Below, piece by piece: positions 12,926 through 64,000 of a DNA stretch of 64,000 nucleotides. The stretch is from Strigamia acuminata (taxonomy: Eukaryota), in assembly GCA_949358305.1 (NCBI GenBank), contig OX442314.1:31868001-31932000 (forward strand). Reading direction: 5' to 3'. Made by a program: the position numbers and the translations under genes. The notes below the pieces were generated by a model that saw only the letters and a program-made list of their open reading frames with translations, did no database searches and was not told where the DNA came from. Each line of letters opens with the position of its first letter. Within the stretch, counting starts at the first letter, position 1.

Positions 12926-12949
12926 CGCTCGTCTGAGCGTCTCGGCTGC

Positions 12950-13050
12950 GTCTGATGATCGTCCTTGTCCTTCCGATTTTATACAGGGGTCCGGGGAACC
13001 CGCCCTCCACGTGCGTAATAATCTCCCTCGCGGCCACCGTCCGCCAATCA
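12950..13050 (-). promoter_or_regulatory. Core promoter of the atonal-family gene
   Basis: TATAAAA at 12983-12977 (minus); initiator-like ATCAGAC ~30 bp downstream (~12950-12956); CACGTG box at ~13008-13013; CCAAT at ~13044-13048. Confidence 0.7.
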
Positions 13051-23795: not shown

Positions 23796-24754
23796 TGCTG
23801 CGATCCGGGTTTTTATCCACTTAATTTCTAATAAATTAAGCAGAAACCGCAGGTGAATGCTATAAAAGACTTACAATCGGCGGCCTTAAATTATCTAGGG
23901 GTTAAGTTTAAGGAAAAGAAATAAAAAGACAGTTTTATTAATAAAAATCACAAATATGTATTTATTCGTTTAAATTACAATGACTAGTTAAAAATATCAC
24001 AATGGCGACAAGTCGCGAAATGAAATGAGCGGGAACAATGGAAGGGCTTGCAACGACTGTTGCAAGCTACAAAGCGCTAAAATGGCGCTTAAACAACACA
24101 CAGTTGTTAGGCGAAGGCGAATTGTCTTCGTTTGCTGAACTCACGAACGATGGTCGAAGACGATGGTTCTCGTGGGCTCCTTCTACGGCTCGTGCGACGG
24201 CTCGGCGGCGGTGGTTGACGGCTGTAGGCGTCCGGCTCTCGTACGATGGCGGTGGCTGTCGTTCGCGCGGCAGCGACGGCGATGGTTCACGATCGTCGGG
24301 AAACTTCTTCTTCTCGTTTGCTGGAATTAGCTACGGCTAATTCAAGCAGAATTGCTGGCTTTGTGCTTTGGGTGGCACAAAGATAGCAGGTGAAACTGAG
24401 TTACAACGGTCCTCTATCAATACGTATTGTCGGAGCAGATATCGCAGTGATGTTGAGGTTGTTGTTGTATTTTTCAGAGTCACGATTTGAGCCAAGACGC
24501 GAGCCCAGCACGCTTCAATATTGCGCAGAAAACCTGCGCACTTAGCTCAAATGGGTGCAACTAGTGGTTATTACACCATATTGCACCATAACGGCTAATA
24601 ACCGTTTTCACCCCGGACAACCTGGGGTGATATGTGCCTAGAGAGGATTTCTCCCCTCGGTCACATGATCTGACTTGGCGTGTGCCACAGTCAAATTAAT
24701 TAGAAGATAATTAATTTAATCTTCTAAGTTGGTGAATATTTTGAGATCACCACA
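23796..24754 (-). repeat. 3' LTR of copy 1
   Basis: Direct repeat of 35174-36132 at a constant offset of 11,378; no differences seen by eye. Confidence 0.97.
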
Positions 24755-24767
24755 CATCCCCCCATTT
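24755..24767 (-). other. Polypurine tract
   Basis: AAATGGGGGGATG (minus) abutting the 3' LTR. Confidence 0.85.
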
Positions 24768-24806
24768 AAGACGAATCTTACATGGAGAGAAAATGAACGA
24801 ACCAAT

Positions 24807-27602
24807 TTATGATTCGTCCATGGTCTGAGTTCGCTCAGGCGTCAACGGGCGCATCATATCCGTGGTGTCGTCCCTCGGGTTGGACCGCTCGTTAACCGTA
24901 CACAGGTCGCGACCTGCGTTTGGTCCGGAGACCATTCCAGGGTTGACATGAAGCCAAACCTGGATGATTCTCGCCGAGTTCGCTCGGTTGAAAAATCCTA
25001 GCGCCGCAAACTCTATGGGATCCTCTGGCGCCAATCGTGCTCTCAGGAGTCGATCGTGGAGCACTGATGGTGGGCTTAACACCCGGATGTGGTCCTCGAG
25101 CCACATAAACACCTGCCTCGACAACTTGTGGTTGTTGCTAAGCAGTGTTCGCGTATCCGGCGTCAAATAGAAGTGCGGATACAGGCGCATCAGGGTCTTG
25201 AAAGCCGACTCTTTTTTCAGCGGCTTGACCTTCGTCTCCGGCTTGGCTGGCGGCGGCGGCGGCGGACGTGAGTCTTCCGTCGTGGCATCGTCAAAATGGC
25301 ACTGCGGGCCCAAGAAAACCAACGCGGGTGCGGAGGTTGACGAGGGTGTGACGCCTCGTCCCGGTGCTCGACCCACACCGGGGAGCTGACGGGTTTCGAC
25401 TACCCGTTGAACTCCGGCTGGAGTTTGAGAACTTCCGGCGTTCTCTGGCCAAAATGAACATCCAGCGCCCTCTTGGGCCGACTGGAAAACAGCCAGTGAC
25501 GCAGCTGCTGTGGCGCTTGTAACTGGAAGCGGTGGTCTTCCGGTCATTCGCGCCGTGGCCTTCGCAAAGGACCACTCGGTTCGCAACCGAACGGCGGCCT
25601 CTTCTTCGGTCTCACCGTTTGCTACGACTTGCTTTATTAGCTCGGCTAAGATCGTAGGCGGGTCGAGCCTGAGGTGGTACCACAGCTCGACTTTCTTCTC
25701 CGACAGGCCCATCGGCGCGGTCCAAAGGTACGTAATGGCCGCTAACGCCTGTCCTGGCGAAGGAAGAACACCAGGGTACAACACCCTAGTCATCCCCGGA
25801 ATTAGCTGACGCTGAAAATCCATCAGACGGGGATCATCAATGGTATTGATGTCGGAGACTTCTAGCCTTTCAGCTAGTCTCTGCCAGTCCTTCTGCGACT
25901 CGGCGATCTGGGCGCTTTGGTATGCGTCCAGCTTCTGGAGCACTTCCTGCTGCGCTCTAATGGGTTGCTGCTCGTAGCAGGTCCATTGTGGGCCGAACGA
26001 CTCACTGAAAAATGGCCGGAGTTGCAGGTTGCTAACTCCAGCCGGCAAGCGGGAAACATAACCTTGTTCGGGCAAGCGGCTAGCGTGTCCAGGTACAGGC
26101 ACGCTACAGTCGGGAGAAATATCACCGACGACACGTCTCATGGCGTATGGAGTAGCCGGGTTGTCCACTTTGAACGTGGAGGCGGTTCGGCTACTTCGGG
26201 CGGACTTAATTGTGGAGTCCGATTCGAAACTCAGCGAAGACGACGAGCCAAACGACTCTGGTGTCCGTCCTCGTCGCGACTGCGGGCGTGATGGCTGCGC
26301 GTCAGTCGAATATGGGCGTGATCGCCTCTGACGTTCCTCTCGATCGCGGCTTGATTCGCGGAACATCGGTCGGACTGGAACCGGCGGAGGGAGTTGCCCC
26401 ACCCTCAAATCCTCGTCTTGCGGCGGAGGATTGATGGCCGCTGGGGCCGGAATTCCATCTTCTTGATAAAAAGGGAGAGCGCAACGCGCTTGCTCCTCTG
26501 CCTCGTGTTCTCGAGCCAGTTGTCGATTTTCGTCGACGCGAAGCTGCACCGCGGCAGCTCGGAGTGCTTTGGACGGGAAAAATCCCGGAAAATCGTTAAA
26601 ACACCCGGCGAGCGCCAACTGGTGGAGCTCGGTTTGTGTGACGGGAAGTTGTGGGTTCCCGTCACGAACGGATTTGCGATACCGTTTAACGACTTCGCGT
26701 TGTGTCGTCTTGAGGTTCTTCCTCAATTGGGTTAGAGCACCGTAATTAATTCCGGTACTCTTTAGCGCTCTTCTGCGCTCGTGACGCTCTCGTGGCGTCA
26801 CTGGCCACTGGTTGTGCAGCAACTCTGCTGCAAGCGGTCCTGGGGGGCTCTCGTCGAGCGTCCACTCGATTTCGTCGACACCGTCCACGTGAAGGCGCTC
26901 GATGAATCTTCCTTTTGCACCAAATCCTTGCAGCGCTGATCTGCTGAAGTCGTGGCGCAACTTCCACCAGGTATTGTTTGCCGTCTTCAGTCTTCTGATT
27001 TTTTCGGGCAATGCCGCTCGAAAAATCAGCGGGTGCTGAGTCGGCACGTGATCGGGAAGCGCGAATGGTGTTTCTCGATCCCTCTCGATCTATATTCGAA
27101 GAAAAATAAATAAATTAGTTTATTTAAAAATAAACAAATAATTTCTTATTTGAAATATTTTTTAAGCTTAGCGCTTGTGGCTGTGAGTCACTAAGGGATG
27201 TTGGTTGTCATGGCAACTCCCTTCGCACATGCTTGAAGCACGTGACTTTTATAGCCGCCATTTTTATTTTTTAGCGGCTTGTGTTTGAAGTCAGGAAAAG
27301 TGAAATTACTCAATTTTTCTGACTTAAACACTTGGTAAAAATTTATTCTAATAATTTACCCGTTGTTGAAGCGTCAATTGAACGTCTTCATTTGCCCCTT
27401 CCATGGGCATTTCTCCGTCCGCCTGGAGTTGGATCGCTTCCTCGTCCATTCTCTTTCGTTTTCCGGTAATTTCGGAAATTCTTTCGTCTTGAAAGAGAAA
27501 TAATACATAAATCTTATGTTTTATCAAATTTTTCATACAGAAAAATTACTTACGATCAGGTTGTCGAACTATTCGGGTCGTAACGTAGGCGATGCGATGC
27601 AT
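24807..27602 (-). CDS. Third gene (ORF3) of the LTR element, unknown function, not Env-like; predicted exons 27602-27554, 27487-27360, 27089-24807 (819 aa)
   Basis: The long ORF has no ATG near its 5' end but is open from an acceptor TTTTTCTTCGAATATAG|ATC at 27090/27089. Introns 27553-27488 (GTAAGT...TTTCAAG, 66 nt) and 27359-27090 (GTAAAT...ATAG, 270 nt) join an ATG at 27602 in frame. A homologous frame is open in copy 2. The CDS is secure; the exon model is inferred. Confidence 0.75.
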
Positions 27603-27791
27603 ACACTCTCGAAACTTTTGAAAAAGTGACTAAGTTCGTTGATTGCAAACACGAACTTGGATTAGAGACGCTTTGTGACGTCACTAATTATAACGTATGA
27701 TTAACGTTGTCATTCGAGTGGGTACTACGAATGACGTCACGAGATTGCTTTCTCGGATCTTTTGGGTAAACCCAAAAGGTGAAAGACAACA

Positions 27792-30700
27792 CTATGTCTT
27801 GGCTCGCGGAACGCGAGATCTCAAGTTGTACTTTGACTTTCGCGAAGTACAATCCAACTTGTTTAGATTGTCATCAGCATCGTCTCCAATGTCAGATGAG
27901 TTATATACTTCATTGTTTGAAATTTTCTCTTTTTCTAAAAACATTTCCTTTTCTAGATTTTCATCAAGAGAAACATTTTCAAGTCGCTGGTTTATTTCAT
28001 CGACTTCGTTATTTTTGAGTTTCGATTTTTTACTCGATTCCGTGTTTTCGACAGGAATTTTGGATAATTTAGCATCATCCAAGGTATTAACAATATTCTT
28101 TGTTTTTTGACCCACTTCCTCCCCTTCCAGCCAAATTTCTTGGTTGAAAACGGGAAAGTACGGCATTAATTCAGTGCCGTGAACAGCTGGATAAATTTTA
28201 TTATCACTCAGCCGTCGAAGTTGAAAGGCGCCTCCTTGTAACCTTTTGATAATTACATAAGGCCCATTCCTTTTCGGTGAAATGCCTGCTGCTATTCCTT
28301 TAGCGGCATTTGAGAGAATATGAGACTCTCGCCAGACTAAATCATTTTGTCTGAAGTTGTCGAATTTCTTATCTGATTTTTCAGCTTCGACACGGCGTCT
28401 CAAATCTAAGACGTGAGACATCATATGCTGATACGTCTCTGCAATTATTGTTTCTAATTTCTGAACATATAAATGCGGATTTTTTGGATCAATGACTAAA
28501 ATTCCTTCCGGAATTCTTGGATCCCAAGGAATTCTTAATTCTCGGAAAAAATTTAAGAAAGCAGGAGAATAATCTCTGCCTCTTGTTACAGTTGTTCTCA
28601 AACTGAATGCAAATTCGCGTAGATACTCATCCCATTGGTCATGAATATCTAAATAAATCGAAACTAAATATTTAATATCTCGATTGGTTCTCTCCACAGG
28701 ATTGCTTTGTGGATGATAAATCGATGTCGGTGTTCGCGACATGTCGAATTTTTTGCAAAATTCTTTATAGACCTGTGATCGAAATTGTGGTCCATTATCA
28801 CTTATGATTTGTCTCGGAAATCCGAAAGTCATTGATAAGTGATAAATTGTGTTGGCAACTTTTATTGCCGTTGGATTACACATTGGAAATAATTCGGGCC
28901 AATGTGTAGCGACATCTACGATGACGCAAATGTGGGTATTGTTTTTTCTGGTTCTTGGTTTGGGACCAGACAAATCCACACTGAGGCAGTCAAATGGTCC
29001 AAATGGTCCAATTTGAGCGCCTTCAATTTCGGTCTTTGATCTCGGCTTACATGCCTGACATCCTTGACAATGTTGAATAAAACGTGTAATATCACGTTTC
29101 ATACCTTTCCAGGTATAAACTCTTCGAGTTCGGTACATTGTCCTCGCAATGCCTGGGTGGCCGGACAGTGGATGTCCGTGCATCAACCAAATGATTTTAT
29201 AAATCAATTTTCTTGGCACAACAACTTTAAGTGCCCTACCATCCTCTCCCAATTCATCGGTGGAGGTAGGATGATAATGGAGTAGCATATCTTCTTCAAT
29301 GAGATAAGTACTCGCGTGTCTTTCAAAGTTTCTTCTTTGAAGACGAGTTACTATGTAACTTGGATATTGCTTGTTTAGCAAGTAATTGCGAATATGTTGG
29401 CAAAATTCGTCTGCTTTTTGCGCTGCAATAATGTCATCTCTCGTTGGAGGATCACATTCTAATTGCTTCGCAATTTTAGCTGCAAATGCTTTAATTAAAA
29501 CATTTGTTGTTGGCAGCTCGAATTTTTTAGCCATCATAGCTCTTAATTCGACGTCAGGGGTTCCTGACGGATCATGCATGTTAATACAAAAATTAATTAA
29601 TGCTTGATCGTCGTCATTAACTATTATTGACTTGGGTAATTCGTTCAATTTTCCCATTTGCCAACTTCGGCAAGGAGATGGACAATATGATAATAAATCA
29701 TCATTATCGCCATCGTCTTCTGGTTCGTCAGGTGCGCTGACAGGTGCACGTGACAATGCGTCTGCTATTACATTCAGCGGACCTTTGACGTATTGTATTT
29801 CGAACGAATACGCCATTAGCTCCATTTGCCAACGAGCTAATCTGCCCGACGGGTCAGATAACGACATCAACCACTTAAGTGCTTGGTGATCCGTTTGTAC
29901 AGTGAATGTAGTGTACTCTAAGTATGGGCGAAATTTGCGTAATCCCCATACTACTGCGAGACATTCTAATTCTGTCACAGTATAATTCTTTTCAGCGGGT
30001 TGCAAGCTTCTGCTTGCATACACGCATGGCATTTCGACTTCTTGGCCATCCACAATTTTCTTTTGTGTAAGGGCTGCACCCAACCCTTGTTTACTGGCGT
30101 CAGTATGAACAATAAATGGCATGTACAAGTCAGGCATCTTCATTGTTTCAGCATTCGTAAGCAGGTCTTTTATTGCGTCGAATGCTGCTTGATGATGCAG
30201 TTCCCAATCGAACTCCGCATCTTTCTTCAAGAGTGGCCTTAGTGGTTCTGCCACTGTGGCCAAATTCTTGATTAGGCGGTGAAAGAAATTCACCATGCCT
30301 AGAAATCTTTGTAATTCCTTAAGATTGGTAGGAGCAGGAAATTGCGTAATTGCAGCGACTTTTTTAGGGTCTACTGCAAGTCCTTCTACTCCTACTTTGT
30401 AGCCTAGAAAAATTAATTCCTTTCTACAGAGATGCGTCTTGCCAGGGTGCGCATGTAAATTAGCTTCTGCCAATTTTTTAAACACTATATCTAAATGTTT
30501 AATGTGTTCTTCGAACGATTTGGATACAACAATTATGTCATCCAAATATGCCCATGCAAATTTTCTGTAAACGTCACCCAAAACTTTTTCCATTAATTCT
30601 TGGAAGGTAGTTGGTGCGTTTACTAATCCGAAAGGCATAACTAAAAACATTAGTCTTCCCATTGGGCTCCAGAAGGCAGTTTTTTCTCTGTCTTCAGGGC

Positions 30701-32051
30701 GCAATTCTATCTGCCAATATCCCTTGGTCAGATCTATAGTACTGACCCACTCGAATTCTCCGATTTCTCGCAGAATTTCCTCAATTGTTGGCATTTGAGG
30801 TGGGTTGTACTTAGTATGTGTATTGATGGGGCGAAAATCAATGCACAAGCGTGGGTCGTTTCCTGGTCGCATGACTAGGACTGGCCTCATTCCGTAATCG
30901 CCTTCAGCTTTGACGACTACGCCTTTGTCAATCATGTCTTGACAAAGTTGTCTGATTATTTCCCTTTTTTGAGGGTTTATGCTCTTAAAGGGGACACGGA
31001 TGGGTTTCTCCGTGTCAAGCTCAATTTTGTGCTTAACCAGGTGTGTTTTACCTGGATCTTTAGAAATAATCCTTTTATGTTTGGATAACATCTTTTCTAA
31101 TAATTTGGATTGCTCCAAATTTAAGTTAGCTTCTTTGACTAACTTTTGGATGAAATTCTCTTCATCAATTTTGCTTTGAGTTACACTTGCAGCGTAAGCT
31201 TTTGCAAAGGTCACAAATGAGGAATCGGGTTCCTCTATTTTCTCCAAATAACGATCCAGCAACGCTTGTGGAATGTAGGGTAAATCTGCATCCACAGGTT
31301 GCGTGAAATTCCAAGACATCGTCTGTGGATTAGGTTGGATTTTTAATTTATTCATAAAATCGCAACCCAATAGTACCATTGGATACTTATTTGGTATTAC
31401 GATGAACGGATGACGTAACGTGCCATGTGTCCATCGAAATGAAAGATGAATGGTTCCATCTGGAGTGACTTCTTCACTTGCCGTCGTGACTCTGACACCA
31501 GGTCCGATAGGTCGTAGATATTTTTCTAGACCTAATTGATTAATAACTGAAGTGGCTAGGAAGCTTTTATTTGCTCCTGAGTCCAACATTCCGGTTATTA
31601 CACCTTTTAACGTTTCTAACTTTAACGTCGGAAGGTCTTGGCTGTTTGGTATTCCAGCCACTTTGCACTCAAACTTGCGCAATTTATGAGGAATTGTAAT
31701 TGGAGGCTCCAAAGGCAATTCATCTAATAACTCATTGGTATCAAGAGTTGTAGTTGCAAATAACTTAATGCATTCCTCAATTCCAGGTGTCTCTGGAACT
31801 GAGCTTGGTCTATCGTCTTTAACTTCGACTTTATCTTGAATATTGGAAGTGTCTTCTTCAGTCGGGGTTTCGCCGACAATCTCCTTTTTTACATCAAGAG
31901 ATCCATTTTCTTTTAGTTCAGTTTGACGAATTAATTCATCAATAGCTTCTCCAACATCTTCCATTATCTTCAGATTTTCATTCTCTGATTCCGATTTCGG
32001 AGGTGACGCAGCGTCCACTAGACCTGATGGATCTGCGTCTACAAGTTTTTT
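27792..32051 (-). CDS. pol: Pol (protease, reverse transcriptase, RNase H, integrase), expressed by -1 frameshift from gag
   Basis: LDSGA (PR); YLDD and MPFGL.NAP (RT); TDAS...ELECLA...TDH...ADALSR (RH); H-H-C-C, D..D..E and GPY (IN). Confidence 0.96.
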   Translation of the reverse strand, partial: KKLVDADPSGLVDAASPPKSESENENLKIMEDVGEAIDELIRQTELKENGSLDVKKEIVGETPTEEDTSNIQDKVEVKDDRPSSVPETPGIEECIKLFATTTLDTNELLDELPLEPPITIPHKLRKFECKVAGIPNSQDLPTLKLETLKGVITGMLDSGANKSFLATSVINQLGLEKYLRPIGPGVRVTTASEEVTPDGTIHLSFRWTHGTLRHPFIVIPNKYPMVLLGCDFMNKLKIQPNPQTMSWNFTQPVDADLPYIPQALLDRYLEKIEEPDSSFVTFAKAYAASVTQSKIDEENFIQKLVKEANLNLEQSKLLEKMLSKHKRIISKDPGKTHLVKHKIELDTEKPIRVPFKSINPQKREIIRQLCQDMIDKGVVVKAEGDYGMRPVLVMRPGNDPRLCIDFRPINTHTKYNPPQMPTIEEILREIGEFEWVSTIDLTKGYWQIELRPEDREKTAFWSPMGRLMFLVMPFGLVNAPTTFQELMEKVLGDVYRKFAWAYLDDIIVVSKSFEEHIKHLDIVFKKLAEANLHAHPGKTHLCRKELIFLGYKVGVEGLAVDPKKVAAITQFPAPTNLKELQRFLGMVNFFHRLIKNLATVAEPLRPLLKKDAEFDWELHHQAAFDAIKDLLTNAETMKMPDLYMPFIVHTDASKQGLGAALTQKKIVDGQEVEMPCVYASRSLQPAEKNYTVTELECLAVVWGLRKFRPYLEYTTFTVQTDHQALKWLMSLSDPSGRLARWQMELMAYSFEIQYVKGPLNVIADALSRAPVSAPDEPEDDGDNDDLLSYCPSPCRSWQMGKLNELPKSIIVNDDDQALINFCINMHDPSGTPDVELRAMMAKKFELPTTNVLIKAFAAKIAKQLECDPPTRDDIIAAQKADEFCQHIRNYLLNKQYPSYIVTRLQRRNFERHASTYLIEEDMLLHYHPTSTDELGEDGRALKVVVPRKLIYKIIWLMHGHPLSGHPGIARTMYRTRRVYTWKGMKRDITRFIQHCQGCQACKPRSKTEIEGAQIGPFGPFDCLSVDLSGPKPRTRKNNTHICVIVDVATHWPELFPMCNPTAIKVANTIYHLSMTFGFPRQIISDNGPQFRSQVYKEFCKKFDMSRTPTSIYHPQSNPVERTNRDIKYLVSIYLDIHDQWDEYLREFAFSLRTTVTRGRDYSPAFLNFFRELRIPWDPRIPEGILVIDPKNPHLYVQKLETIIAETYQHMMSHVLDLRRRVEAEKSDKKFDNFRQNDLVWRESHILSNAAKGIAAGISPKRNGPYVIIKRLQGGAFQLRRLSDNKIYPAVHGTELMPYFPVFNQEIWLEGEEVGQKTKNIVNTLDDAKLSKIPVENTESSKKSKLKNNEVDEINQRLENVSLDENLEKEMFLEKEKISNNEVYNSSDIGDDADDNLNKLDCTSRKSKYNLRSRVPRAKT
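32005..32051 (-). other. -1 programmed ribosomal frameshift signal (copy 1)
   Basis: Slippery A_AAA_AAC at 32051-32045, a 5-nt spacer, then hairpin GACGCAG...CTGCGTC. Pol is in the -1 frame relative to gag. Confidence 0.85.
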
Positions 32052-35000
32052 CGAAACATGTCAGTTATGATCTTGACTGCTTTTTCAAACTCAGCTGTTG
32101 ACACTGGTTTGTCCTTTTTAGAGGAAGGGCAGTCTTTTTGCCAATGCCCTAATTTTTTGCATAAATTGCATGGATCAGTGGCAGGCGATTTCTTTTTCGT
32201 TGCTGCTGGCGAGGCAGGACGAGAACGAGCGTCAGACCGGCGCTCTGGCGACACCGCGGGTGATTTTGAATTCCTTTCGGTATTCACCTTTGATGCGTCA
32301 AATGAAACATTTTTTGGTTTCATTTTTGGCTTCCATTTGCCTGCAACGGGGTTATTTTTTGCTAACAGCGCCGCTGCTTTGGCTAATAAAGCCAACGTCT
32401 CATCTCCTGCTTCCTCCTCCTCTTCAGCTTCTTCAGCTTCAGACGACGGAGTTTCAGCTCCAGTTATATTTGCATGTAACTTAGGAACTGAATGAGGATT
32501 TTTGACGTCCTTTTTGGAAGATTCTTTTTTCGAACTCTTCTCATCCACTTCGTCTAGAAAGTCTTCGTAACTAGGTGGCTGCAACAATTTCAAACCATTA
32601 AAGGTTTCATTGTTTTGCTCAGCGAGTCTTTTCTCTCGCTTTAAGTACGCTGACCTTTCGCTTTCTGTAAGGTAAGCTTTGTACTTTTCGTCAATGCGCA
32701 ATTGATTGACTTCCATGAACTCGTTTAACTCGGAGAATTTCCCCGGGTCGGGAGCGTCCGACATCATCAGAATATTTTTACTATATTCTGTGAGGCCAGC
32801 TCTAAACTGATCATCTGCTGTTGCATCAGTAACAGCATGTGGCATTCTGCCAAGCAGATTCTCTGCTCTTAGCATGTACGAATGTAAGCTTTCGCCTTTT
32901 CGTTGCTTAAGACATCTCCAAAGCGTCTTGATGTCTTCGCTCGATTCACCAAATTTAAACATAAATTGTTTAACGAAGTCATCCCACTTCGTGAAGTCTT
33001 TCCTGCGAAACCACTCCTTGACACCGCCAACTAGTATTCTTGGTACTAGATGGGCCAATGCACCTTCACAGCTAAAACTGTGAACTTTGCCTAGTTCGAA
33101 TATTTCCAGCAAGAGGTTTGACCCTGCTTGCCAATTTCCATTATAGGCATGTGGGATAACTCGATCCCATCTAATGAACTTTTCATCTGTTGTTTGATGA
33201 GTCCATTTATCAGAAGTAAATTCACTTATTTTTTGCAAAATAATTTTATCCCTTCTGCTTTTTCGCTGTTGTTGAGCATTTTGCCTCAACAACTGGTCAA
33301 TCTCATCTTTCGTGTAAAAATCGGGTCTTTGAGTTCTACTACGTGTTCTGTGACGAGATCGCCCTCTCACACTGGGACGTGAGGAATCTGTATCTGACGC
33401 AGATTCATGATTCGGATTTGGCGGCGGATCAGGGTCCGGAGGATCGTCGCCATCTGGCGGACGACGGTCTCCATTTGGTGGTCCCCTTCCATTTCGATTG
33501 CCATTCGAATTGTGGTCACGTGAGTGGCCACCTCCATGTCCATCTGAACTGTCTCCACCTGGTGGGTCACCACCTGGCGGATTTCCACGGTATCTCGGCC
33601 CATCACGGATGTCGTTGTGACAATCTCGTTTTGGTGAGCCTTCTCGCGGATTATCGTGTGACCGTCCACGATCGTGTGGTTTCTCACGTTCTTTATTCTT
33701 TTTCGCCAGCAATCCAATTAATTGGTCACTATTGCTAAAGAATCTATCCGAATTTTGCGGAACTTTTGGGGAATGATATTCGGTCGGGTCTGGTTGTCGC
33801 TTTCTCTTTTTGCGACTGTGATGACTATTACGGCTTCCACGACTACTGCGTGAGTCATCGCTGTCAGTCCAACTTGATTGTCGACTGACTTTTGGTTTAG
33901 CTGATGTTAAATCAATCAACTCAGGTGATTTGGAAGCACCTTTTTGCAAAACTGGGGCTGGCTTTGCAAAATTATCTTCGCCACAAACGTCTTGTACTTT
34001 TTGTACGACTACTGCAAAGTTTTCTTGTACCGTCAATAGATCTGCGCGAAGAATTTCGTTTTCACGAGCTTGCGCAGCTAAGTCGGCACGTAATAACTGC
34101 TCTGCAGTGCTTAGACTTTTGGCGGCTTGACCAGCATCAATTACAGACTGCTGTCGAGCGAGAAATACTTCGTTTTCTCGTTGTGCTAATCTCTTAGCTC
34201 TTGCTGCTTGTTCTACAGCATAATTCTCGTAATTTCGAGAACATGAGGGGATTATTTCCCTCGCTCGAACTGGGGCGGTTAGTTCGGCAGTCATTAAATT
34301 TGTGTTGGCTTCTCGCAAATTTGCGTTGGCCAATCTCAAATTTTCATTAGCAATTTCTAAATCTTTTTGTGCTTGATTTAGTTGCTCGAGCCTTTGTTGT
34401 TGCTCTTCGTCAGTAATTAGCCAGGAAGCTTTTTCCTGCTCTAATTGTAACAACTTAACATGGTCATTCGCACGTTGTTGTTTTAGTTCGGCATTTTGCT
34501 GATGCATTTCTGCACGCATTCGCTCGAACTCTGCTTGCAAGCTTGTTCTGACGATTTCAACGTCTTTTTGACTTTGTTTGCGAACCATAGCTTTGTGGAT
34601 TTGTTCCACAGTCATTTCGCTAGTGACTTTTACTCCCTCGAGCCTAGCTTGCTCACGGAGTGCGTCCATCATGGTAACACGCACTGGAGAATGAGAAACT
34701 TCCATGTTGGAGTTCTCTAAATCTTGCTGTGCTGCACCTTGGACTGGTGATGAATTCAGCGAGTGCTCTGCACTTGATGATTGAATTCGTAAATTCAAAT
34801 CATCATTTTGCGACTTGGAACGGCCACTTCCAGTTGGATTATTTAAGTCCAACTGGCCGCTTGGCGGGGATGGCTGTTGTCGCTCCAACGCTTGCGTGAA
34901 TTCATTCACGATTAACTGTGCCGAGTTACAGTTAGCTGTTTGATCCATGGCTTCAAACAGTTCTTGTGACTCAGTCACTTCTTGATCCACGATTGGTAGA

Positions 35001-35062
35001 TCGATCGCCACTCGTCTCTTCGCCGGCCTTCCTCTCGGTCTCTTCTCTGAAGGAGTCGCCAT
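32039..35062 (-). CDS. gag: Gag (1007 aa) with long coiled-coil/disordered N-terminus, retrotransposon-gag core and CCHC zinc knuckle
   Basis: WF...W.DF...F...F and LKQRKGES...Y capsid-type motifs; CNLCKKLGHWQKDC knuckle. Confidence 0.93.
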   Translation of the reverse strand: MATPSEKRPRGRPAKRRVAIDLPIVDQEVTESQELFEAMDQTANCNSAQLIVNEFTQALERQQPSPPSGQLDLNNPTGSGRSKSQNDDLNLRIQSSSAEHSLNSSPVQGAAQQDLENSNMEVSHSPVRVTMMDALREQARLEGVKVTSEMTVEQIHKAMVRKQSQKDVEIVRTSLQAEFERMRAEMHQQNAELKQQRANDHVKLLQLEQEKASWLITDEEQQQRLEQLNQAQKDLEIANENLRLANANLREANTNLMTAELTAPVRAREIIPSCSRNYENYAVEQAARAKRLAQRENEVFLARQQSVIDAGQAAKSLSTAEQLLRADLAAQARENEILRADLLTVQENFAVVVQKVQDVCGEDNFAKPAPVLQKGASKSPELIDLTSAKPKVSRQSSWTDSDDSRSSRGSRNSHHSRKKRKRQPDPTEYHSPKVPQNSDRFFSNSDQLIGLLAKKNKEREKPHDRGRSHDNPREGSPKRDCHNDIRDGPRYRGNPPGGDPPGGDSSDGHGGGHSRDHNSNGNRNGRGPPNGDRRPPDGDDPPDPDPPPNPNHESASDTDSSRPSVRGRSRHRTRSRTQRPDFYTKDEIDQLLRQNAQQQRKSRRDKIILQKISEFTSDKWTHQTTDEKFIRWDRVIPHAYNGNWQAGSNLLLEIFELGKVHSFSCEGALAHLVPRILVGGVKEWFRRKDFTKWDDFVKQFMFKFGESSEDIKTLWRCLKQRKGESLHSYMLRAENLLGRMPHAVTDATADDQFRAGLTEYSKNILMMSDAPDPGKFSELNEFMEVNQLRIDEKYKAYLTESERSAYLKREKRLAEQNNETFNGLKLLQPPSYEDFLDEVDEKSSKKESSKKDVKNPHSVPKLHANITGAETPSSEAEEAEEEEEAGDETLALLAKAAALLAKNNPVAGKWKPKMKPKNVSFDASKVNTERNSKSPAVSPERRSDARSRPASPAATKKKSPATDPCNLCKKLGHWQKDCPSSKKDKPVSTAEFEKAVKIITDMFRKNL

Positions 35063-35153
35063 TTTTCAATGAGGATTTAGAAAGGATAGAGAAGAAAGAT
35101 AAGCAAGATAAAAATGGCGGGTAAATTTTAACTAACAAAGTTATACAATGACT

Positions 35154-35171
35154 ATCCCGGACGGGCCCCCA
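35154..35171 (-). other. Primer binding site complementary to tRNA-Pro
   Basis: TGGGGGCCCGTCCGGGAT, 2 nt from the LTR; 17/18 match to the classical tRNA-Pro PBS TGGGGGCTCGTCCGGGAT. Confidence 0.88.
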
Positions 35172-35173
35172 CG

Positions 35174-36132
35174 TGCTGCGATCCGGGTTTTTATCCACTT
35201 AATTTCTAATAAATTAAGCAGAAACCGCAGGTGAATGCTATAAAAGACTTACAATCGGCGGCCTTAAATTATCTAGGGGTTAAGTTTAAGGAAAAGAAAT
35301 AAAAAGACAGTTTTATTAATAAAAATCACAAATATGTATTTATTCGTTTAAATTACAATGACTAGTTAAAAATATCACAATGGCGACAAGTCGCGAAATG
35401 AAATGAGCGGGAACAATGGAAGGGCTTGCAACGACTGTTGCAAGCTACAAAGCGCTAAAATGGCGCTTAAACAACACACAGTTGTTAGGCGAAGGCGAAT
35501 TGTCTTCGTTTGCTGAACTCACGAACGATGGTCGAAGACGATGGTTCTCGTGGGCTCCTTCTACGGCTCGTGCGACGGCTCGGCGGCGGTGGTTGACGGC
35601 TGTAGGCGTCCGGCTCTCGTACGATGGCGGTGGCTGTCGTTCGCGCGGCAGCGACGGCGATGGTTCACGATCGTCGGGAAACTTCTTCTTCTCGTTTGCT
35701 GGAATTAGCTACGGCTAATTCAAGCAGAATTGCTGGCTTTGTGCTTTGGGTGGCACAAAGATAGCAGGTGAAACTGAGTTACAACGGTCCTCTATCAATA
35801 CGTATTGTCGGAGCAGATATCGCAGTGATGTTGAGGTTGTTGTTGTATTTTTCAGAGTCACGATTTGAGCCAAGACGCGAGCCCAGCACGCTTCAATATT
35901 GCGCAGAAAACCTGCGCACTTAGCTCAAATGGGTGCAACTAGTGGTTATTACACCATATTGCACCATAACGGCTAATAACCGTTTTCACCCCGGACAACC
36001 TGGGGTGATATGTGCCTAGAGAGGATTTCTCCCCTCGGTCACATGATCTGACTTGGCGTGTGCCACAGTCAAATTAATTAGAAGATAATTAATTTAATCT
36101 TCTAAGTTGGTGAATATTTTGAGATCACCACA
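35174..36132 (-). repeat. 5' LTR of copy 1
   Basis: Begins TGTGGTGATCTC and ends GCAGCA on the minus strand; followed by the PBS. Confidence 0.97.
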
Positions 36133-54588: not shown

Positions 54589-54975
54589 CGCGCCTGAAAA
54601 TGACCCCCACAACAGCAGGAAAACAATATTTAAGGTGTCTTAACGAGTATTAACGTTAACGCTCGCCTACCAAACCTGTGTGTTGTTTGTTACTGCTCGT
54701 TTCCATGTGATTGAATTCAAACGCTGCGGTTTTATTGTGTGTGTGTGTGTTTGCATTTTAATGGGTATTGATTAATGATTTAATATTAATTCTGTATCTA
54801 GGAGATGCCATTCGAAAGGCTGTTTTGTTTATGGTAGCGTCTAGCGCAAGTTACCTAGGAGATAATGATGATTGAGTTACACGTGTATGACCTGAATACA
54901 AGAGCGATATGGTCGTTATCCACCGTTGCCACCACCTCCACAAGAAAATCACTAACTTGTTAAGTTTTAAAACAT

Positions 54976-55926
54976 TGTGGTGATCTCAAATATTTCACCA
55001 ACTTAGAAGATAAATTAATTGTGTCTTCTAATTAATTTGACTGTGGCACACGCCAAGTCGAATCATGTGACGAAGGGGAGGAAACTTCCCTAGGCACATA
55101 TCACCTCAGGTTGGCTGGGGTGAAAGACGGTAATTAACCGTTATGGTGCAATATTGGGCAATAATCCTTTGTTGCACCAGTTTCAGCTAATTGCGCAGAT
55201 TATCTGCGCAATATTGAAGCGTGCCGGGCTCGCGCCCTAGCTTCAATCGAGACTCTTGACAAAAATACACAACCCACAACATCACTGCGATATTTGCTCC
55301 GACAATTCGTATTGACAGTGGACCGTGTAACCGTCAAGTTTCACCAGCTTGCTTTGTAACAACTTACAAAGCCAGCAATCTTGCTTGAATTAGCCGTCGC
55401 TAATTCCAGCTATCGTAGAAGAAGAAGTTCCTGATCCAAGTGAACCATCGCCATCGTTGCTGCGCGAACGGCAACCATCGCCATCGTACCTGGACCAGAC
55501 GCCTGTAGCCGTCAACCACCGCCATCGAGCCGTCGCACGAGCCACAGAAGGACCCACGAGAACCATCGTCGCCAGGACCATCGTTCGTGAGTCGTTGAAC
55601 GAAGACATTTTGCCTTCATAACAACTTCCAGTTGTCAAGCGCCATCGCCGCGCTTTGTAGCTTGCAACAGTCGTTGCAAGCCCTTCCATTGTTCTTTCCC
55701 GCTCATTATTTCGCGACTTGTCGCTTTTAATCTCATTTTACCACTAGTCATTGTATTTATTGTAATAAAAAGTGTTCATTTGAATTATAAAACTGTCTTT
55801 TTATTTCTCCTTATTAAAATTAACCCTAGATAATTTTCGGCCGCGATATAAGTCTTTTAAAGCATTCACCTGCGGTTTCACGCTTATTTATTAGGAATAA
55901 GTGTGATAAAAACCCGGATCGCAGCA
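54976..55926 (+). repeat. 5' LTR of copy 2 (951 bp)
   Basis: TGTGGTGATCTC...GATCGCAGCA, homologous to the copy 1 LTR; preceded by ACAT (expected TSD). Confidence 0.92.
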
Positions 55927-55928
55927 CG

Positions 55929-55946
55929 TGGGGGCCCGTCCGGGAT
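55929..55946 (+). other. tRNA-Pro primer binding site (copy 2)
   Basis: TGGGGGCCCGTCCGGGAT, identical to copy 1. Confidence 0.88.
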
Positions 55947-56043
55947 ATATTTCAATTGTATAAATTTTTGTCAGTTAAAATTTACCCGCCATTTTTATCT
56001 TGTTTGTCTTTCTTATCTTTCCTTTCTCTGTCTTCATTGAAAA

Positions 56044-59025
56044 ATGGCGACTCCAAGCGAAAAGAGACCACGAGGACGACCAGCGAAGAAACAATTGGCG
56101 ATCGAATTACAAGTCGTGGATCCTGAAGTTCCAGCGATTGAAGAACAGTTTGAAGCTATGGATCAAACTGTGAGCGTGAACGACGGCACGCCATGTTTGG
56201 AAGAACAAACGTCGCAACCGTTTAACGGCCAGTCGAATTTGAATATTCCGACTGGAAGCGGCTATTCCAAGCAACATAAAGATGATTTGAACGCGTCAAC
56301 ACAAGTTCAATCATCTAGTGCCGAACATTCAATGCACTCCTCACCTTTGCTGCTGCAAGGTAGAGAACCGCCCGACTCGGAGGTTTCTTCTTCTCCGGTG
56401 CGTGTCACAATGATAGACGCACTTCGTGAGCAAGCTAAGCTCGCCGGAGTGGAAGTCATCGATGAGATGACAGTGGAAGAACTCCACCAGGCAATGGTTG
56501 AAAAACATAGCCAAAAAGCAGTCGAAACGCTCAAGACTAGCTTACAAATTGAGTTCGAAAGGCAACATGCTGAGTTACAACAGCAAAATGCAGAACTTAA
56601 GCGACAACGCGCACACGATCATGTGCAGTTGCTAAACTTCGAGCAGGAAAAGGCTTCATGGCTAATAACTGACGAAGAGCATCAAAAGATGCAACAGCAG
56701 CTAAATCAAGCTAAAAAAGATTTAGAAACTGCTAATGAGAATTTGAGAATTGCAAATTCCAATCTCATGACTGCCGAATTAAATTCACAAGCTAAACAGA
56801 AGCAAGTTAACCCTTCTTCTCAACAGCTAGAGCAATGTTCAGTAGAACAGGCAGCCAGAGCTAAGAGATTAGCTCAGCGAGAAAATGAATTATTTCTCGC
56901 TCAACAGCGGTCAGTAATTGACGCTGGTCAAAATGCTAGAAGTCTGAGCACTGCAGAGCAATTATTGCGTGCCGACTTAGCAGCCCAAGCTCGTGAAAAT
57001 GAAATTCTTCGTGCCGATTTATTAAAAGCACAGGAAGAATTCGAGGAAGTTGTGCAACGTGTGCAAGCTACCTCAAGTGATTCGATGTTTGCAAAACCAA
57101 ACCCAGTTTTGCAAAAAGGTGCTCCAAAATCACCTTCGTTGATTAATTTGAATTCAACTGAGTCGAAGCTCAGTCGCCAGTCCAGTTGGACCGATAGTGA
57201 TGACTCGCGAAGTAGTCGTAGCAGCCGTGGCAGCCGTCATGGCCGAAAAAAGCGAAAACGACAACCGGACCCGACCGAATATCATCCGTCGAAGGCTTCG
57301 CAGAATACGGACCAGTTCTTTAGCAACAGTGACCGATTACTCGGAATGTTGGCTGACAAGAACAAACAGCGTGAGGAATCACGTGATCATGGCCGAGCAC
57401 ATGATAATCCGCGAGATGGCTCGTCCAAACGTGGATGTCCCGAAGACATTCGAGACGGACCAAGGTATCGTGAAGGTCCACCAGACGGAGATCCGCCTGG
57501 AGGGGACGACCCACATGGACATGGCGGTGGCCACTCAGGTGGCCACAATTCGAATGGCAATTATGGTAGAAGGGGACCCCCAGATGGAGATCGTGGTCCG
57601 CCCAATGATAACGATCCTCCTGACCCCGATCCACCGCCAAATTTTGCGAATCACGAGTCAGCGTCTGATACTGACTCCTCACACCCAAGTGTGAGAGGGC
57701 GCTCGCGTCACAGAACGCGTGGTAGAAGCCCGAACCAAGCTTTTTATACGAAAGCTGAGATTGACCAACTTCTGCGACAGAATGTCGGCAATCAGCAAAA
57801 GGACAGAAGAGATAAAGTCATTTTGCAAAAAATCAGCGAGTTCACATCCGATAAGTGGACTCATAGAGCGAATGATGAGAGATTTATTCGATGGGATCGA
57901 GTAGTCCCTCGTGCCTATAATGGATCCTGGCGAGCAGGGTCCAATTTCTTACTAGAAGTATTTGAATTAGGCAAAGAGCACAATTTCGGTTGTGAAAGCG
58001 CTCTAGACCATCTAGTACCAAAAATGCTAGTCGGAGACGTCAAAGAATGGTTTCGTCGTCGAAACTTCACGAAGTGGGATGACTTCGTTACTAAATTTAT
58101 GTTTAAATTTGGAGAATCGAGCGAAGACATCAAAATGCTTTGGAGAAGCTTAAAGCAACGAAAAGGCGAAAGCTTACATTCGTACATGCTTAGGGCAGAG
58201 AATCTGCTTGGCAGGGTGCCTCATGAAGTAACCGATGCAACTGCCGACGATCAGTTTCGTGCTGGTCTCAACGAATATTCAAAAAATATTCTAATGATGT
58301 CTAACGCACCAGACCCTGGGAAATTCTCAGAATTAAATGAATTTATGGAAGTAAATCAACTTCGTATTGAAGAAAAGTATAAAGCATACTTGACTGACGC
58401 TGAAAGGTCAGCTTTCCTACAGCGAGAGAAAAAGCTTGCTGAGAAAAATCATGAAACCTGCAATGGTTTGCAATTGATGCTTCCCCCTAGTTATGAAGAT
58501 ATACTAGATGAAATGGAAGAGAAGAAGTCGAAAAAAGATTCTTCTAAAAAAGAGGTAAACAATCCTCATTCCGTTCCGAAGTTACGTGCAAATGTAGCAG
58601 GAGCTGAAAGTCCAACCTCTGACGCTGAAAAAGTTGAAGAAGAGGGAGAAGGAGAAGATGAGACATTGGCTTTATTGGCCAAAACGGCTGCATTATTAGC
58701 CAAAAATAATTCAGTTGCTGGCAAATGGAAGCCAAGAATGAAGCCTAAAACAGTTTCATTCAATACTGACAAGGTGAATAAAGAAAGAAATTCAAAATCA
58801 CCTGCAGCATCACCTGAGCGTCGCTCAGACACTCGTTCTCGTTCTGCTTCACCAGCAGGTAAGAAAAAGAAGTCACCTTCTACCGATCCCTGCAACTTAT
58901 GTAAAAAGTTGGGACATTGGCAAAGAGATTGCCCCACTGCTACCAAGAAAGACAAACCAGTAACATCAGCTGAGTTTGAAAAAGCAGTAAAAGTTTTGAT
59001 GGATTTATTCGCAAAAAACTTATAG
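56044..59025 (+). CDS. gag: Gag (993 aa), copy 2
   Basis: Collinear with copy 1 Gag; CNLCKKLGHWQRDC knuckle. Confidence 0.93.
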   Translation: MATPSEKRPRGRPAKKQLAIELQVVDPEVPAIEEQFEAMDQTVSVNDGTPCLEEQTSQPFNGQSNLNIPTGSGYSKQHKDDLNASTQVQSSSAEHSMHSSPLLLQGREPPDSEVSSSPVRVTMIDALREQAKLAGVEVIDEMTVEELHQAMVEKHSQKAVETLKTSLQIEFERQHAELQQQNAELKRQRAHDHVQLLNFEQEKASWLITDEEHQKMQQQLNQAKKDLETANENLRIANSNLMTAELNSQAKQKQVNPSSQQLEQCSVEQAARAKRLAQRENELFLAQQRSVIDAGQNARSLSTAEQLLRADLAAQARENEILRADLLKAQEEFEEVVQRVQATSSDSMFAKPNPVLQKGAPKSPSLINLNSTESKLSRQSSWTDSDDSRSSRSSRGSRHGRKKRKRQPDPTEYHPSKASQNTDQFFSNSDRLLGMLADKNKQREESRDHGRAHDNPRDGSSKRGCPEDIRDGPRYREGPPDGDPPGGDDPHGHGGGHSGGHNSNGNYGRRGPPDGDRGPPNDNDPPDPDPPPNFANHESASDTDSSHPSVRGRSRHRTRGRSPNQAFYTKAEIDQLLRQNVGNQQKDRRDKVILQKISEFTSDKWTHRANDERFIRWDRVVPRAYNGSWRAGSNFLLEVFELGKEHNFGCESALDHLVPKMLVGDVKEWFRRRNFTKWDDFVTKFMFKFGESSEDIKMLWRSLKQRKGESLHSYMLRAENLLGRVPHEVTDATADDQFRAGLNEYSKNILMMSNAPDPGKFSELNEFMEVNQLRIEEKYKAYLTDAERSAFLQREKKLAEKNHETCNGLQLMLPPSYEDILDEMEEKKSKKDSSKKEVNNPHSVPKLRANVAGAESPTSDAEKVEEEGEGEDETLALLAKTAALLAKNNSVAGKWKPRMKPKTVSFNTDKVNKERNSKSPAASPERRSDTRSRSASPAGKKKKSPSTDPCNLCKKLGHWQRDCPTATKKDKPVTSAEFEKAVKVLMDLFAKNL

Positions 59026-59059
59026 ACGCAGATCCATCAGGTCTAGTGGATCCTGCGTC
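59013..59059 (+). other. -1 frameshift signal (copy 2)
   Basis: A_AAA_AAC at 59013-59019, 5-nt spacer, hairpin GACGCAG-ATCCAT-loop-GTGGAT-C-CTGCGTC at 59025-59059. Confidence 0.85.
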
Positions 59060-63206: not shown

Positions 63207-63312
63207 CTTTTCTTTCACCTTTTGAAAGTTCCCAAAAGGTTCACGAGAGCAAACTCGTGACGTCATCAATAGTCCGCTATTCGATGACAAACGTCTATAA
63301 GTTGTTATAATT

Positions 63313-64000
63313 AATGACTTTCCGGGGTTTTTCCTGTCAAAAGCGCTCCGAGCTGCCGCCGCGCAGCTCCTAGTCGACGAAAATCGACAGCTGACTCGTC
63401 AACTCGAGGCAGATGAGAACGCGCGCTGCGCACTCCCTTTCTTCCGCGAGGACGAAATTCCGGCTCCGACGCCAATCTTTTCCGCGCCGCAAGACGAGGA
63501 TTTGAGGGTGGGACGACTCCCTCCCGCTGGATCAAGCACTGGACCACAGCGACGTGAATCCAGCCGCGACCGAGAGGAGCAACAGAGGCGATCGCGCCCC
63601 TACACCACGGACGCGCCACCGAATCGTCCACCGTCGCGAAGAGGCCGAACTCCGGAGTCTTTATTCTCCTCGTCCTCCCAGAGCGTGGAATCCGACACGA
63701 CCGTCAAATCCGCACGCAGTGGCAGAACGGCGTCCACTTACAGAGTGGACAACCCCGCCATTCCATACGCAATGCGTCGTGTTGTCGGGGATATCTCCCC
63801 CGACTTTAGCGTGCCTGTGCCAGGACACGCTAGCCGCTTGCCGGAGCATGGATATGTTGCCCGCTTGCCTGCCGGAGTTAGTAACTTACAGCTCCGGCCG
63901 TTTTTCAACGAGTCTTTCGGACCCCAGTGGACCTGCTACGAGCAGCAACCCATTAGAGCGCAGCAAGAAGTGCTCAAGAAGCTGGACGCCTACCAAAGCG
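63313..64000 (+). pseudogene. 5'-deleted ORF3 of copy 2 (frame open to the window end)
   Basis: Translates NDFPGFFLSKALRAAAAQL...MRRVVGDISPDFSVPVPGHASRLPEHGYVARLPAGVSNLQLRPFFNESFGPQWTCYEQQPIRAQQEVLKKLDAYQS, matching copy 1 ORF3. Fused directly to the post-pol spacer. Confidence 0.85.

Follow-up and report, generated by a model that had tools for sequence, protein, structure and literature searches.

A selected, probably spliced non-Env gene in the env position of a young Ty3/gypsy element

Short introns of the host type, lying on the sense strand of a retrotransposon, are expected to be stripped from its genome within one replication cycle. The locus described here, part of a 64,000-nucleotide stretch of Strigamia acuminata DNA that we refer to as the window, raises the question of what kind of gene occupies the env position of an LTR element when that gene appears to be entered by splicing, and of how its introns would persist. 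A sequence-only reading of the window had proposed a three-exon, non-Env accessory gene that would make the element resemble a complex retrovirus. The element and a relative in the same window are organized as follows.

35174..36132, minus strand: 5' LTR, 959 bp, TG...CA, identical to the 3' LTR; 4-bp target-site duplication TCAT
35154..35171, minus strand: primer-binding site, conserved in element 2
32039..35062, minus strand: gag ORF, with a CCHC knuckle at its C-terminal end
27792..32060, minus strand: pol ORF, stop to stop, domain order protease-RT-RNase H-integrase
24755..24765, minus strand: polypurine tract, adjoining the 3' LTR
23796..24754, minus strand: 3' LTR, 959 bp
54970..64000, plus strand: element 2, a relative, ~80% identical, gag and pol open, running off the end of the window

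The element (23796-36132, minus strand) is an intact Ty3/gypsy element of an invertebrate host, with the TG...CA LTRs, target-site duplication, primer-binding site, polypurine tract and order of gag followed by protease-RT-RNase H-integrase that define the Metaviridae. Because its LTRs are identical over 959 bp, a target-site duplication is present and both gag and pol are open, we regard it as intact and young. An AAAAAAC heptamer at 32051-32045, immediately upstream of the gag stop, is likely a -1 frameshift site into pol. We take the primer-binding site to be of the tRNA-Pro type, presumably with no match to the tRNA-Lys used by Osvaldo-like elements of Culex. Over RT-RNase H, identity to the closest of 124 Pol relatives retrieved is 49%. 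In the available part of their description, the Culex Osvaldo-like elements are all primed by tRNA-Lys (PMC3286476). The literature searched, mainly outside subscription papers and supplements, yielded no published description of the element or of the protein encoded by its third open reading frame (ORF3), which lies between pol and the 3' LTR in the following predicted arrangement.

27603..27791, minus strand: noncoding region after pol, with predicted hairpins (z -6.4) and a candidate internal promoter
27602..27554, minus strand: predicted exon 1, 49 nt, GC 0.51, ATG at 27602, ending in phase 1
27553..27488, minus strand: predicted intron 1, 66 nt, GC 0.20, GTAAGT, pyrimidine tract, AAG
27487..27360, minus strand: predicted exon 2, 128 nt, GC 0.48, with a KRKR motif, an acidic stretch and an in-frame ATG at 27449
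27359..27090, minus strand: predicted intron 2, 270 nt, GTAAAT..TAG, with AT-rich ends
27173..27293, minus strand: block within intron 2, GC-richer (GC 0.46 mid-intron), with predicted hairpins, fold z -6.8
27089..24807, minus strand: exon 3 / ORF3, 2283 nt, 760 codons plus stop, stop to stop, first Met at codon 242

Comparison of ORF3 with element 2 over 228 codons gives an amino acid identity of 0.81 and a dN/dS of 0.136 (~0.14), with 28, 25 and 94 differences at the first, second and third codon positions; the corresponding dN/dS values are 0.100 for pol and 0.163 for gag, while the two shifted frames of ORF3 have dN/dS >2 and contain stops. These comparisons support ORF3 as a real gene under purifying selection. 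It lacks a 5' ATG and, as had been claimed, opens at a TAG acceptor whose AG ends at 27090, preceded by an AT/T-rich tract, with GC rising from 0.12 in the 60 nt upstream to 0.60 downstream. The window holds 24 stop-to-stop ORFs of at least 150 codons, two of which open with TAG; of these two, ORF3 alone also shows a jump in GC and an AT/T-rich tract upstream. Among the family variant rows listed (40 of 51, and not independent of one another), 17 of the 18 at 26850-27089, far upstream of the first Met, are third-position and synonymous, and coding constraint runs from codon 6 of exon 3 onward; at least five non-triplet indel rows fall at 27100-27157, in intron 2 just upstream of the acceptor. 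Within exon 3, a -1 and a +1 indel compensate each other in one variant contig (26940/26945). Since synonymous variants follow the acceptor and non-triplet indels stand just before it, splicing into 27089 is well supported, and ORF3 is very probably entered there.

The proposed three-exon anatomy (49 + 128 + 2283 nt, or 820 codons encoding 819 aa) could be reproduced in full, with every feature at its expected minus-strand position. What stands most firmly in a gene beginning at 27602 is the acceptor at 27089, where coding constraint and the GC step coincide; exons 1 and 2, to which splice motifs and base composition point, are probable with moderate confidence. The GC steps agree with all four predicted exon/intron boundaries, and the GTAAGT at 27553 is the only one between the LTRs on the element's sense strand. 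Intron 1, at 66 nt, does belong to the host size class, in that the five introns of the host ENaC/DEG gene in the window, sized by eye from the sequence, are 53-66 nt long. The weak spots of the model are the acceptor of intron 1, which is the less common AAG, and the weak context of ATG 27602. Exon 1, exon 2 and ORF3 share one genomic frame, with several in-frame stops between the segments. Since both introns are multiples of 3, alternative in-frame starts are available at ATG 27536, which would retain intron 1 and also yield 819 aa, and at ATG 27449, which has the best Kozak context of the three in-frame ATGs and would yield 790 aa with KRKR left out. In one setting, upstream RNA of the genomic transcript masked donor 1, an effect that was not robust over 18 settings and that we set aside.

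All four GT/AG dinucleotides of the predicted introns are untouched among the rows listed. In a search for intron-less copies, which the sequence-only reading had called for, the 171 and 401 records aligned to 26850-27850 showed neither intron joined out; contigs drop rare variants, and the one joint listed is not GT-AG. One contig in each run skips 26934-27619, with the intervening sequence unread. The rows listed include no variant in exon 1, intron 1 or exon 2, depth over exon 2 drops to one subfamily, and diverged copies fail to align there at 80%; with no listed variants and the diverged copies unaligned, conservation of these three segments is unproven. One 486-nt contig, with a depth of 5964 compared with 73 for a flanking contig, matches the window letter for letter over exon 1, intron 1, exon 2 and the end of intron 2, depth being no measure of copy number. 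Because this contig contains introns at such depth, we consider the intron-bearing form to be the amplified form. The family contigs come from two sequencing runs of one study and cover host flank as well as introns, and the contigs of the two runs are not independent of the window because they may derive from its own source.

In element 2, ~1.09 kb is missing, equivalent to exons 1-2 with both introns plus exon 3 up to about codon 164; its deletion also removes the intron-2 block, although gag and pol stay open. It was ruled out as a spliced copy, its junction lying at a short microhomology and not at GT-AG.

The evidence on the product supports a soluble, non-Env protein. The earlier finding of no signal peptide or transmembrane (TM) segment is borne out: the best 19-residue Kyte-Doolittle mean reaches 1.01 in exon 3, compared with 1.52 for a control TM exon, and stays below 0 in exons 1-2, and the signal peptide test, based on hydropathy only, gives a mean of -0.43 for exon 1 and a best window of -0.46 for exon 2. 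A furin site with a fusion peptide is absent, the single RQRR, at residue 253, lying within an R/S/P-rich hydrophilic linker. No Pfam or PDB sequence match points to a viral fusion glycoprotein, and the fold queries used a model of mean pLDDT 41. The NLS-like motif that had been noted is present as KRKR in exon 2, followed by the acidic stretch, and the pattern K-(K/R)-X-(K/R) occurs, as a motif only, in this KRKR and in KRYR of exon 3. Helical blocks, also anticipated, are predicted at ~84-203, 370-540 and 629-730 with R/S/P-rich linkers between them, and 7 Cys are scattered through exon 3. Single-sequence AlphaFold models are mostly helical, with a mean pLDDT of 41.

Searches found no relatives of this protein. 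Exon 3 matched no Pfam family at E up to 0.1, including esterase and exonuclease domains, nothing in PHROGs, and nothing among PDB sequences beyond one match at E 1.4; phmmer against 1.84 billion representatives returned 0 matches at E up to 0.001, and a word-indexed search of proteins of near and shorter lengths gave no relative. The full-length query gave no usable match, with low recognition, in Atlas; ORF3 and integrase queries found no match among viral and metagenome contigs, and exon 3 has no similarity to Gag or to the 124 Pol relatives. Foldseek searches of PDB and BFVD with the model of mean pLDDT 41 returned nothing at E up to 0.001, and the best VIA match of this low-confidence model is a generic helical hairpin (Z 5.8, rmsd 12.8, 80 aligned).

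Sequence motifs mark a candidate internal promoter just after pol. Two TGACGTCA palindromes lie at 27739 and 27683, the first of which is kept in element 2, and an initiator-like TTAGTC is found at 27633-27628. This initiator motif alone is weak, since 8 copies of TAGTCA are spread over the sense strand of the element, and the palindromes also fall within predicted RNA hairpins. Two post-pol hairpins are predicted in element 2 as well, with the inner stem changed. Loose ends at both edges of the intron-2 block suggest that it is kept in diverged copies, and we infer that it is a candidate cis-acting RNA element. The folding of intron 2 was dropped as a unique signal, since strong folding is a property of the entire element (204 windows, mean z -2.5); the windows over exons 1-2 are among its least structured (z -0.2 to -2.1). 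Rfam gave three chance-level matches only, far below gathering scores.

We tentatively suggest that this young, intact element carries a selected orphan gene, ORF3, which would be expressed as a spliced mRNA from an internal promoter and whose product would export unspliced genomic RNA. The ORF3 mRNA would have three exons and come from a promoter just 3' of pol, with an even chance that transcription starts at the initiator near 27631. A spliced mRNA starting near 27631 would be without the 5' LTR and primer site and would not be reverse copied, so that the introns would persist. The protein may possibly enter the nucleus via KRKR and recognise a structured region, for example the intron-2 block, found only in unspliced RNA. 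In the nucleus it would spare genomic RNA from splicing and bring about the export of the unspliced form, in the manner of Rev and of the CERV protein of Cer1. Sequence and fold offer no link between the ORF3 protein and RNA export. It is unlikely that a full Rev/RRE-style circuit evolved here independently from an unrelated and novel protein family. In such a circuit the genomic RNA would contain a complete sense-strand gene with introns and a promoter of its own, and the product of that gene would bind a structured element in the gene's second intron and thereby restrict export and packaging to genomes that are unspliced and globally structured.

Under the same gene model, the protein could instead act in the nucleus as a trans-activator or anti-silencing factor, raising transcription from the LTR as well as from its own promoter, which we judge somewhat unlikely; foamy-virus Tas is a trans-activator made from an internal promoter. 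The candidate internal promoter with its two TGACGTCA palindromes, the KRKR and acidic stretch of exon 2, and several predicted helical domains with long linkers would suit such a factor. In the excerpts available, complex retroviruses use internal promoters for some accessory genes (PMC4402516) and plant aORF proteins are nuclear (PMC7264820, PMC11963269). However, the domain and fold searches found no DNA-binding or chromatin domain, predicted RNA hairpins take in the palindromes as well, and retention of two short host-type introns in genomic RNA would go unexplained.

We see a limited chance that ORF3 is spliced from the LTR transcript, either as a Gag-ORF3 fusion (32287 to 27090) or from an LTR donor (35252 to 27488), the latter giving 790 aa from ATG 27449. 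The gag donor at 32287 (AAG/GTGAAT), just upstream of the zinc knuckle, fits the consensus better than any other candidate donor of the element (8/9), is in phase 0 and is the same in element 2; its conservation says little because the site is protein-coding. The LTR route would use a GTAAGT at 35252 and the in-frame ATG of best context, and CERV exons 1-3 lie in the gag frame in the available text (PMC10309623). In contrast, the LTR donor reads ATAAGT in element 2, and splicing from afar would account neither for the GC islands that look like exons nor for the local donors at 27553 and 27359.

A protein acting in the cytoplasm or particle, with a part in particle assembly, delivery to germ cells or the targeting of integration, is improbable: its env position and large size would fit, and the accessible part of one report describes Env-independent transfer via sORF2 in insects, but sORF2/FAST proteins there are 60-210 aa with one TM (bioRxiv 10.1101/2025.03.14.642691), and ORF3 has no TM segment or signal peptide and carries KRKR. 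Translation of ORF3 from unspliced RNA, through initiation at a non-AUG codon, read-through of a stop or an IRES from the intron-2 block, would draw on the shared genomic frame of its segments and the strongly folded block upstream, but is very improbable given the in-frame stops between those segments, the non-triplet indels just upstream of 27089, and the canonical T-rich AG, with its GC step of 0.12 to 0.60, at which constraint sets in from codon 6.

The export reading has a precedent. CERV, from the C. elegans Ty3/gypsy element Cer1, is described in the available text as spliced, non-Env and nuclear, with a KRKK motif, and as required for genomic RNA export (PMC10309623). As far as that text goes, in both elements an env-position, non-Env ORF forms the C-terminal part of a multi-exon product (predicted here), usable splice sites (predicted here) are kept in genomic RNA, and the protein is lineage-restricted, with a basic NLS (KRKK in CERV, KRKR here) and structured domains joined by linkers. 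CERV, however, has 517 aa from 5 exons, three of them shared with the gag frame, whereas the predicted exons of the ~819-aa ORF3 product all follow pol; CERV is described as having a Cys-rich M domain and a G-protein-like domain, and ORF3 has 7 scattered Cys and mostly helical, low-confidence models with no matching fold listed. The databases searched gave no link between the two, which are set apart by description. Of the proposed likeness to a complex retrovirus, a selected non-Env gene without a known family stands, but the arrangement is not new in principle (PMC10309623); the principle is known from CERV, and the ORF3 protein and gene layout appear to be new.

Errantiviral and retroviral env genes, like ORF3, lie between pol and the 3' LTR on the sense strand and are entered at a splice acceptor; they use one leader-to-env splice, whereas ORF3 has two predicted local introns and no signal peptide, TM anchor or Pfam match. 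HIV Rev is a multiply spliced regulator whose target, the RRE, lies in RNA removed from its own mRNA, and foamy-virus Tas/Bet is an accessory gene that is spliced and has a 3' promoter of its own. With these systems ORF3, which is much larger, shares logic only, as an analogy with no sequence or fold link. In the portions available, the env of Oikopleura Tor3b/4b is transcribed from an internal promoter, Penv, in or after pol (PMC4402516), which makes it, like ORF3, a third ORF of an animal LTR element with such a promoter (shown for Tor, inferred here); Tor Env is a transmembrane glycoprotein and Penv transcripts are unspliced, in contrast to ORF3 with no TM and two predicted introns. The partial accounts of bdelloid rotifer LTR elements list non-Env ORF3s with GDSL, DEDDy, coiled-coil and TM features (PMC5408684), family-specific extras in the same position; no enzyme domain is found here. 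Plant aORFs (Grande gene23, Retand) are likewise extra genes particular to their families and placed between pol and the 3' LTR in the excerpts available (PMC7264820, PMC11963269), and the Grande aORF encodes a nuclear protein with its own promoter according to a reference title (PMC11963269). The nuclear plant aORFs are described there as antisense, whereas ORF3 is on the gag-pol strand; because they are antisense, their introns would not conflict with genomic RNA. The sORF2/FAST-like fusogens, in the part of the preprint available (bioRxiv 10.1101/2025.03.14.642691), are 60-210 aa with a single TM and an N-myristoylation motif, compared with 760-819 aa and no TM for ORF3.

A high-depth, recently active family that keeps two such introns must protect or select unspliced RNA, and in the literature found Cer1/CERV alone shows a mechanism of this kind in an LTR retrotransposon. 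Extra genes of LTR elements that have no start codon are easily annotated as broken env. If our explanation is true, ORF3 would be a second, apparently unrelated protein of this type, implying that complex-retrovirus regulation arises repeatedly, and it would provide both a new family of proteins and a compact system in which to study how retroelements export intron-containing RNA.

The third open reading frame, ORF3, lies between pol and the 3' LTR of an intact retrotransposon that has a relative in the same window:

23796-36132, minus strand: intact Ty3/gypsy retrotransposon with LTRs, gag and pol
54970-64000, plus strand: element 2, a related retrotransposon with ~80% identity to the first element, gag and pol open

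The first element is a member of Ty3/gypsy. Its 959-bp LTRs are identical, start with TG and end with CA, and carry a TCAT duplication on both flanks; a primer-binding site lies downstream of the 5' LTR, and a purine tract just ahead of the 3' LTR. Gag has a CCHC knuckle, an AAAAAAC heptamer stands immediately ahead of the gag stop, and the pol domains are ordered protease-RT-RNase H-integrase. Among 124 Pol relatives retrieved, the best is 49% identical over RT-RNase H, and the lineage therefore has no close relative in that set. Element 2 lacks ~1.09 kb, stretching from the post-pol region as far as ORF3 codon 164, with the joint at a microhomology, not GT-AG, and because of this loss it is uninformative on what joins ORF3. 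Its remaining 228 ORF3 codons contain no stop.

ORF3 (27089-24807, 760 aa; first Met at codon 242) opens at a TAG, with GC of 0.12 in the preceding 60 nt versus 0.60 after it. Of the window's 24 long stop-to-stop ORFs, two open with TAG, and of this pair ORF3 alone shows the GC step. The sequence-only reading had joined ORF3 to two upstream mini-exons, and its description was accurate: we recovered the TAG opening, predicted exons of 49, 128 and 2283 nt, introns of 66 and 270 nt, and an 819-aa product. GC alternates as predicted from exon 1 through exon 3 (0.51/0.20/0.48/0.30/0.57), with 0.24 and 0.12 at the ends of intron 2, and the donor at 27553 is the sole GTAAGT on the sense strand between the LTRs. 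Further in-frame ATGs stand at 27536 and 27449, giving 819 or 790 aa. The predicted 66-nt intron is, as had been claimed, in the size class of the host, where introns are short: five in an ENaC gene, read by eye, span 53-66 nt.

The host, an animal and perhaps an arthropod, has bHLH, ENaC/DEG, BTB and cullin genes in the window. Two short ENaC/DEG (ASC family) genes (44900-46486 and 53059-54639, minus strand), ~90% identical and with introns of ~53-66 nt, are part of a local duplication, and a strongly T-skewed ORF for a non-LTR-type reverse transcriptase (49636-51936, plus strand) lies between two copies of a duplicated segment. The cullin gene (557-2605, plus strand) and the nearby BTB(-BACK) gene (4295-5986, minus strand) are both intron-less and may be retrocopies or belong to expanded ubiquitin-ligase families. 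The single-exon bHLH gene (12437-13120, minus strand; Pfam HLH) is presumably atonal-like, judging by motif.

Over 228 codons aligned with element 2, ORF3 retains 81% amino-acid identity with dN/dS of 0.136, similar to pol (0.100) and gag (0.163); shifted frames give dN/dS >2 and contain stops. Family variants were taken from contigs of two sequencing runs of one study, possibly the window's own source, aligned to the whole element and to 26850-27850, where at least 40 variant rows fell (40 of 51 examined). Eighteen of these 40 lie within the opening 80 codons of exon 3, and from codon 6 on 17 of the 18 are third-position and 17 synonymous (nominal p 1e-7; rows are not independent). Five rows in the same 40 of 51 are non-triplet indels, 11-68 nt upstream of the acceptor. 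Judged from these variants, protein-level constraint acts 240 codons upstream of the first Met, and frameshifts are tolerated immediately before the constrained sequence, so that the boundary resembles an exon-intron junction. A compensating indel pair within exon 3 of one variant contig counts against the constraint reading. The two upstream exons are less certain than this boundary. Exon 1, intron 1 and exon 2 have zero variant rows among the 40 of 51, and in the contigs of the two runs no diverged copy aligns over exon 2 at 80%; the alignments of two records extend from upstream across the ATG at 27602 and end at 27595. One 486-nt contig that matches the window exactly spans 27295-27780 at a depth of 5964 versus 73 in a flanking contig, a measure not equal to copy number; it covers predicted intron 1 and part of predicted intron 2, so the intron-bearing form is the amplified one.

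The claim that the product is not Env held. The best hydropathy window is 1.01 versus 1.52 for the control, hydropathy windows reveal no hydrophobic segment, and exon 3 has seven scattered cysteines and a lone RQRR inside a hydrophilic linker; by these tests it is therefore not Env. The proposed NLS-like motif is present as KRKR in exon 2. No relative of ORF3 was found in Pfam, PHROGs, PDB sequences, two word-indexed searches, Atlas, or viral and metagenome contigs, nor by phmmer against 1.84 billion representatives. In AlphaFold models built from the single sequence (mean pLDDT 41), three helical regions seem to be separated by long linkers; the models gave no usable fold match.

Predicted folding is strong in intron 2 (z -6.8) and the post-pol region (z -6.4), where two hairpins are kept in element 2 with a changed inner stem (two sequences compared). 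Structure extends over the whole element (mean z -2.5, 204 windows) and host genes are near 0, so these scores single out no response element. A structural switch hiding the intron 1 donor in genomic RNA was rejected as not robust. In 120-nt windows, 23796-36132 (minus) and 56041-63206 (plus) are predicted to be much more stably folded than shuffles throughout, coding included (mean z -1.9 to -3.0), and the averages for the host cullin, BTB and bHLH genes and a LINE-like ORF are close to 0. The pattern is similar to the genome-scale ordered RNA structure that RNA viruses have, and the strong folding along both elements may merit study for its own sake.

Aligned contigs have loose ends at 27173 and 27293 within intron 2, which suggests that diverged copies keep its middle while the flanks drift. 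Within 27190-27264 (minus strand), this block contains AAAATGGCGG, TATAAAA, CACGTG and TGACTCA, which we take to be YY1-, TATA-, E-box- and AP-1-like, and a 16-codon ORF from the ATG at 27261; both elements have the reverse complement of AAAATGGCGG in their gag leader (near 35115 in the first). Instead of being an RNA element, the block may serve as an enhancer or promoter in the DNA.

How might such a gene be used? An initiator-like TTAGTC 30 nt upstream of the ATG at 27602 and two TGACGTCA palindromes in the post-pol region suggest a candidate internal promoter; the occurrence of eight TAGTCA in the element weakens the initiator-like motif as evidence. Without a 5' LTR or primer site, a subgenomic spliced mRNA starting after pol would be impossible to copy. 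Genomic RNA would carry the same short canonical introns and, because the family keeps them, would have to stay unspliced; an element-encoded nuclear factor exporting unspliced RNA would be the simplest known solution. We tentatively, and with rather low confidence, assign this role to the ORF3 protein, arguing from analogy and need. Rev/RRE and foamy-virus Tas are further comparison systems. A trans-activation or anti-silencing factor is a somewhat doubtful alternative. Expression from the LTR transcript is likewise rather doubtful: gag has a phase-0 donor at 32287 from which a Gag fusion with ORF3 might arise, and an LTR donor is present at 35252, but the latter is ATAAGT in element 2. A role in the particle or cytoplasm is unlikely, and production of ORF3 without splicing very unlikely.

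The closest precedent is CERV of C. elegans Cer1, a nuclear non-Env protein that carries KRKK, is made from five spliced exons and is required to export the genomic RNA (PMC10309623). In Tor3b/4b elements an internal promoter drives env (PMC4402516), rotifer elements have non-Env ORF3s (PMC5408684, PMC5718144), nuclear antisense proteins occur among plant aORFs (PMC7264820, PMC11963269), and the sORF2 fusogens of insects are small TM proteins (bioRxiv 10.1101/2025.03.14.642691); passages of PMC3286476, PMC13524379 and PMC7998251 contain no comparable gene. No description of the element or its protein turned up in the literature searched, a library with few subscription papers.

The ORF3 gene belongs to none of the Env, sORF2 and enzymatic ORF3 families, nor can it be classed as CERV. 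The accessory-gene interpretation is partly supported: the non-Env orphan gene, its constraint and its exon-intron-like boundary stand. From its sequence, ORF3 is probably a self-contained, sense-strand, intron-bearing accessory gene encoding an orphan protein. By analogy, this protein may work like CERV.
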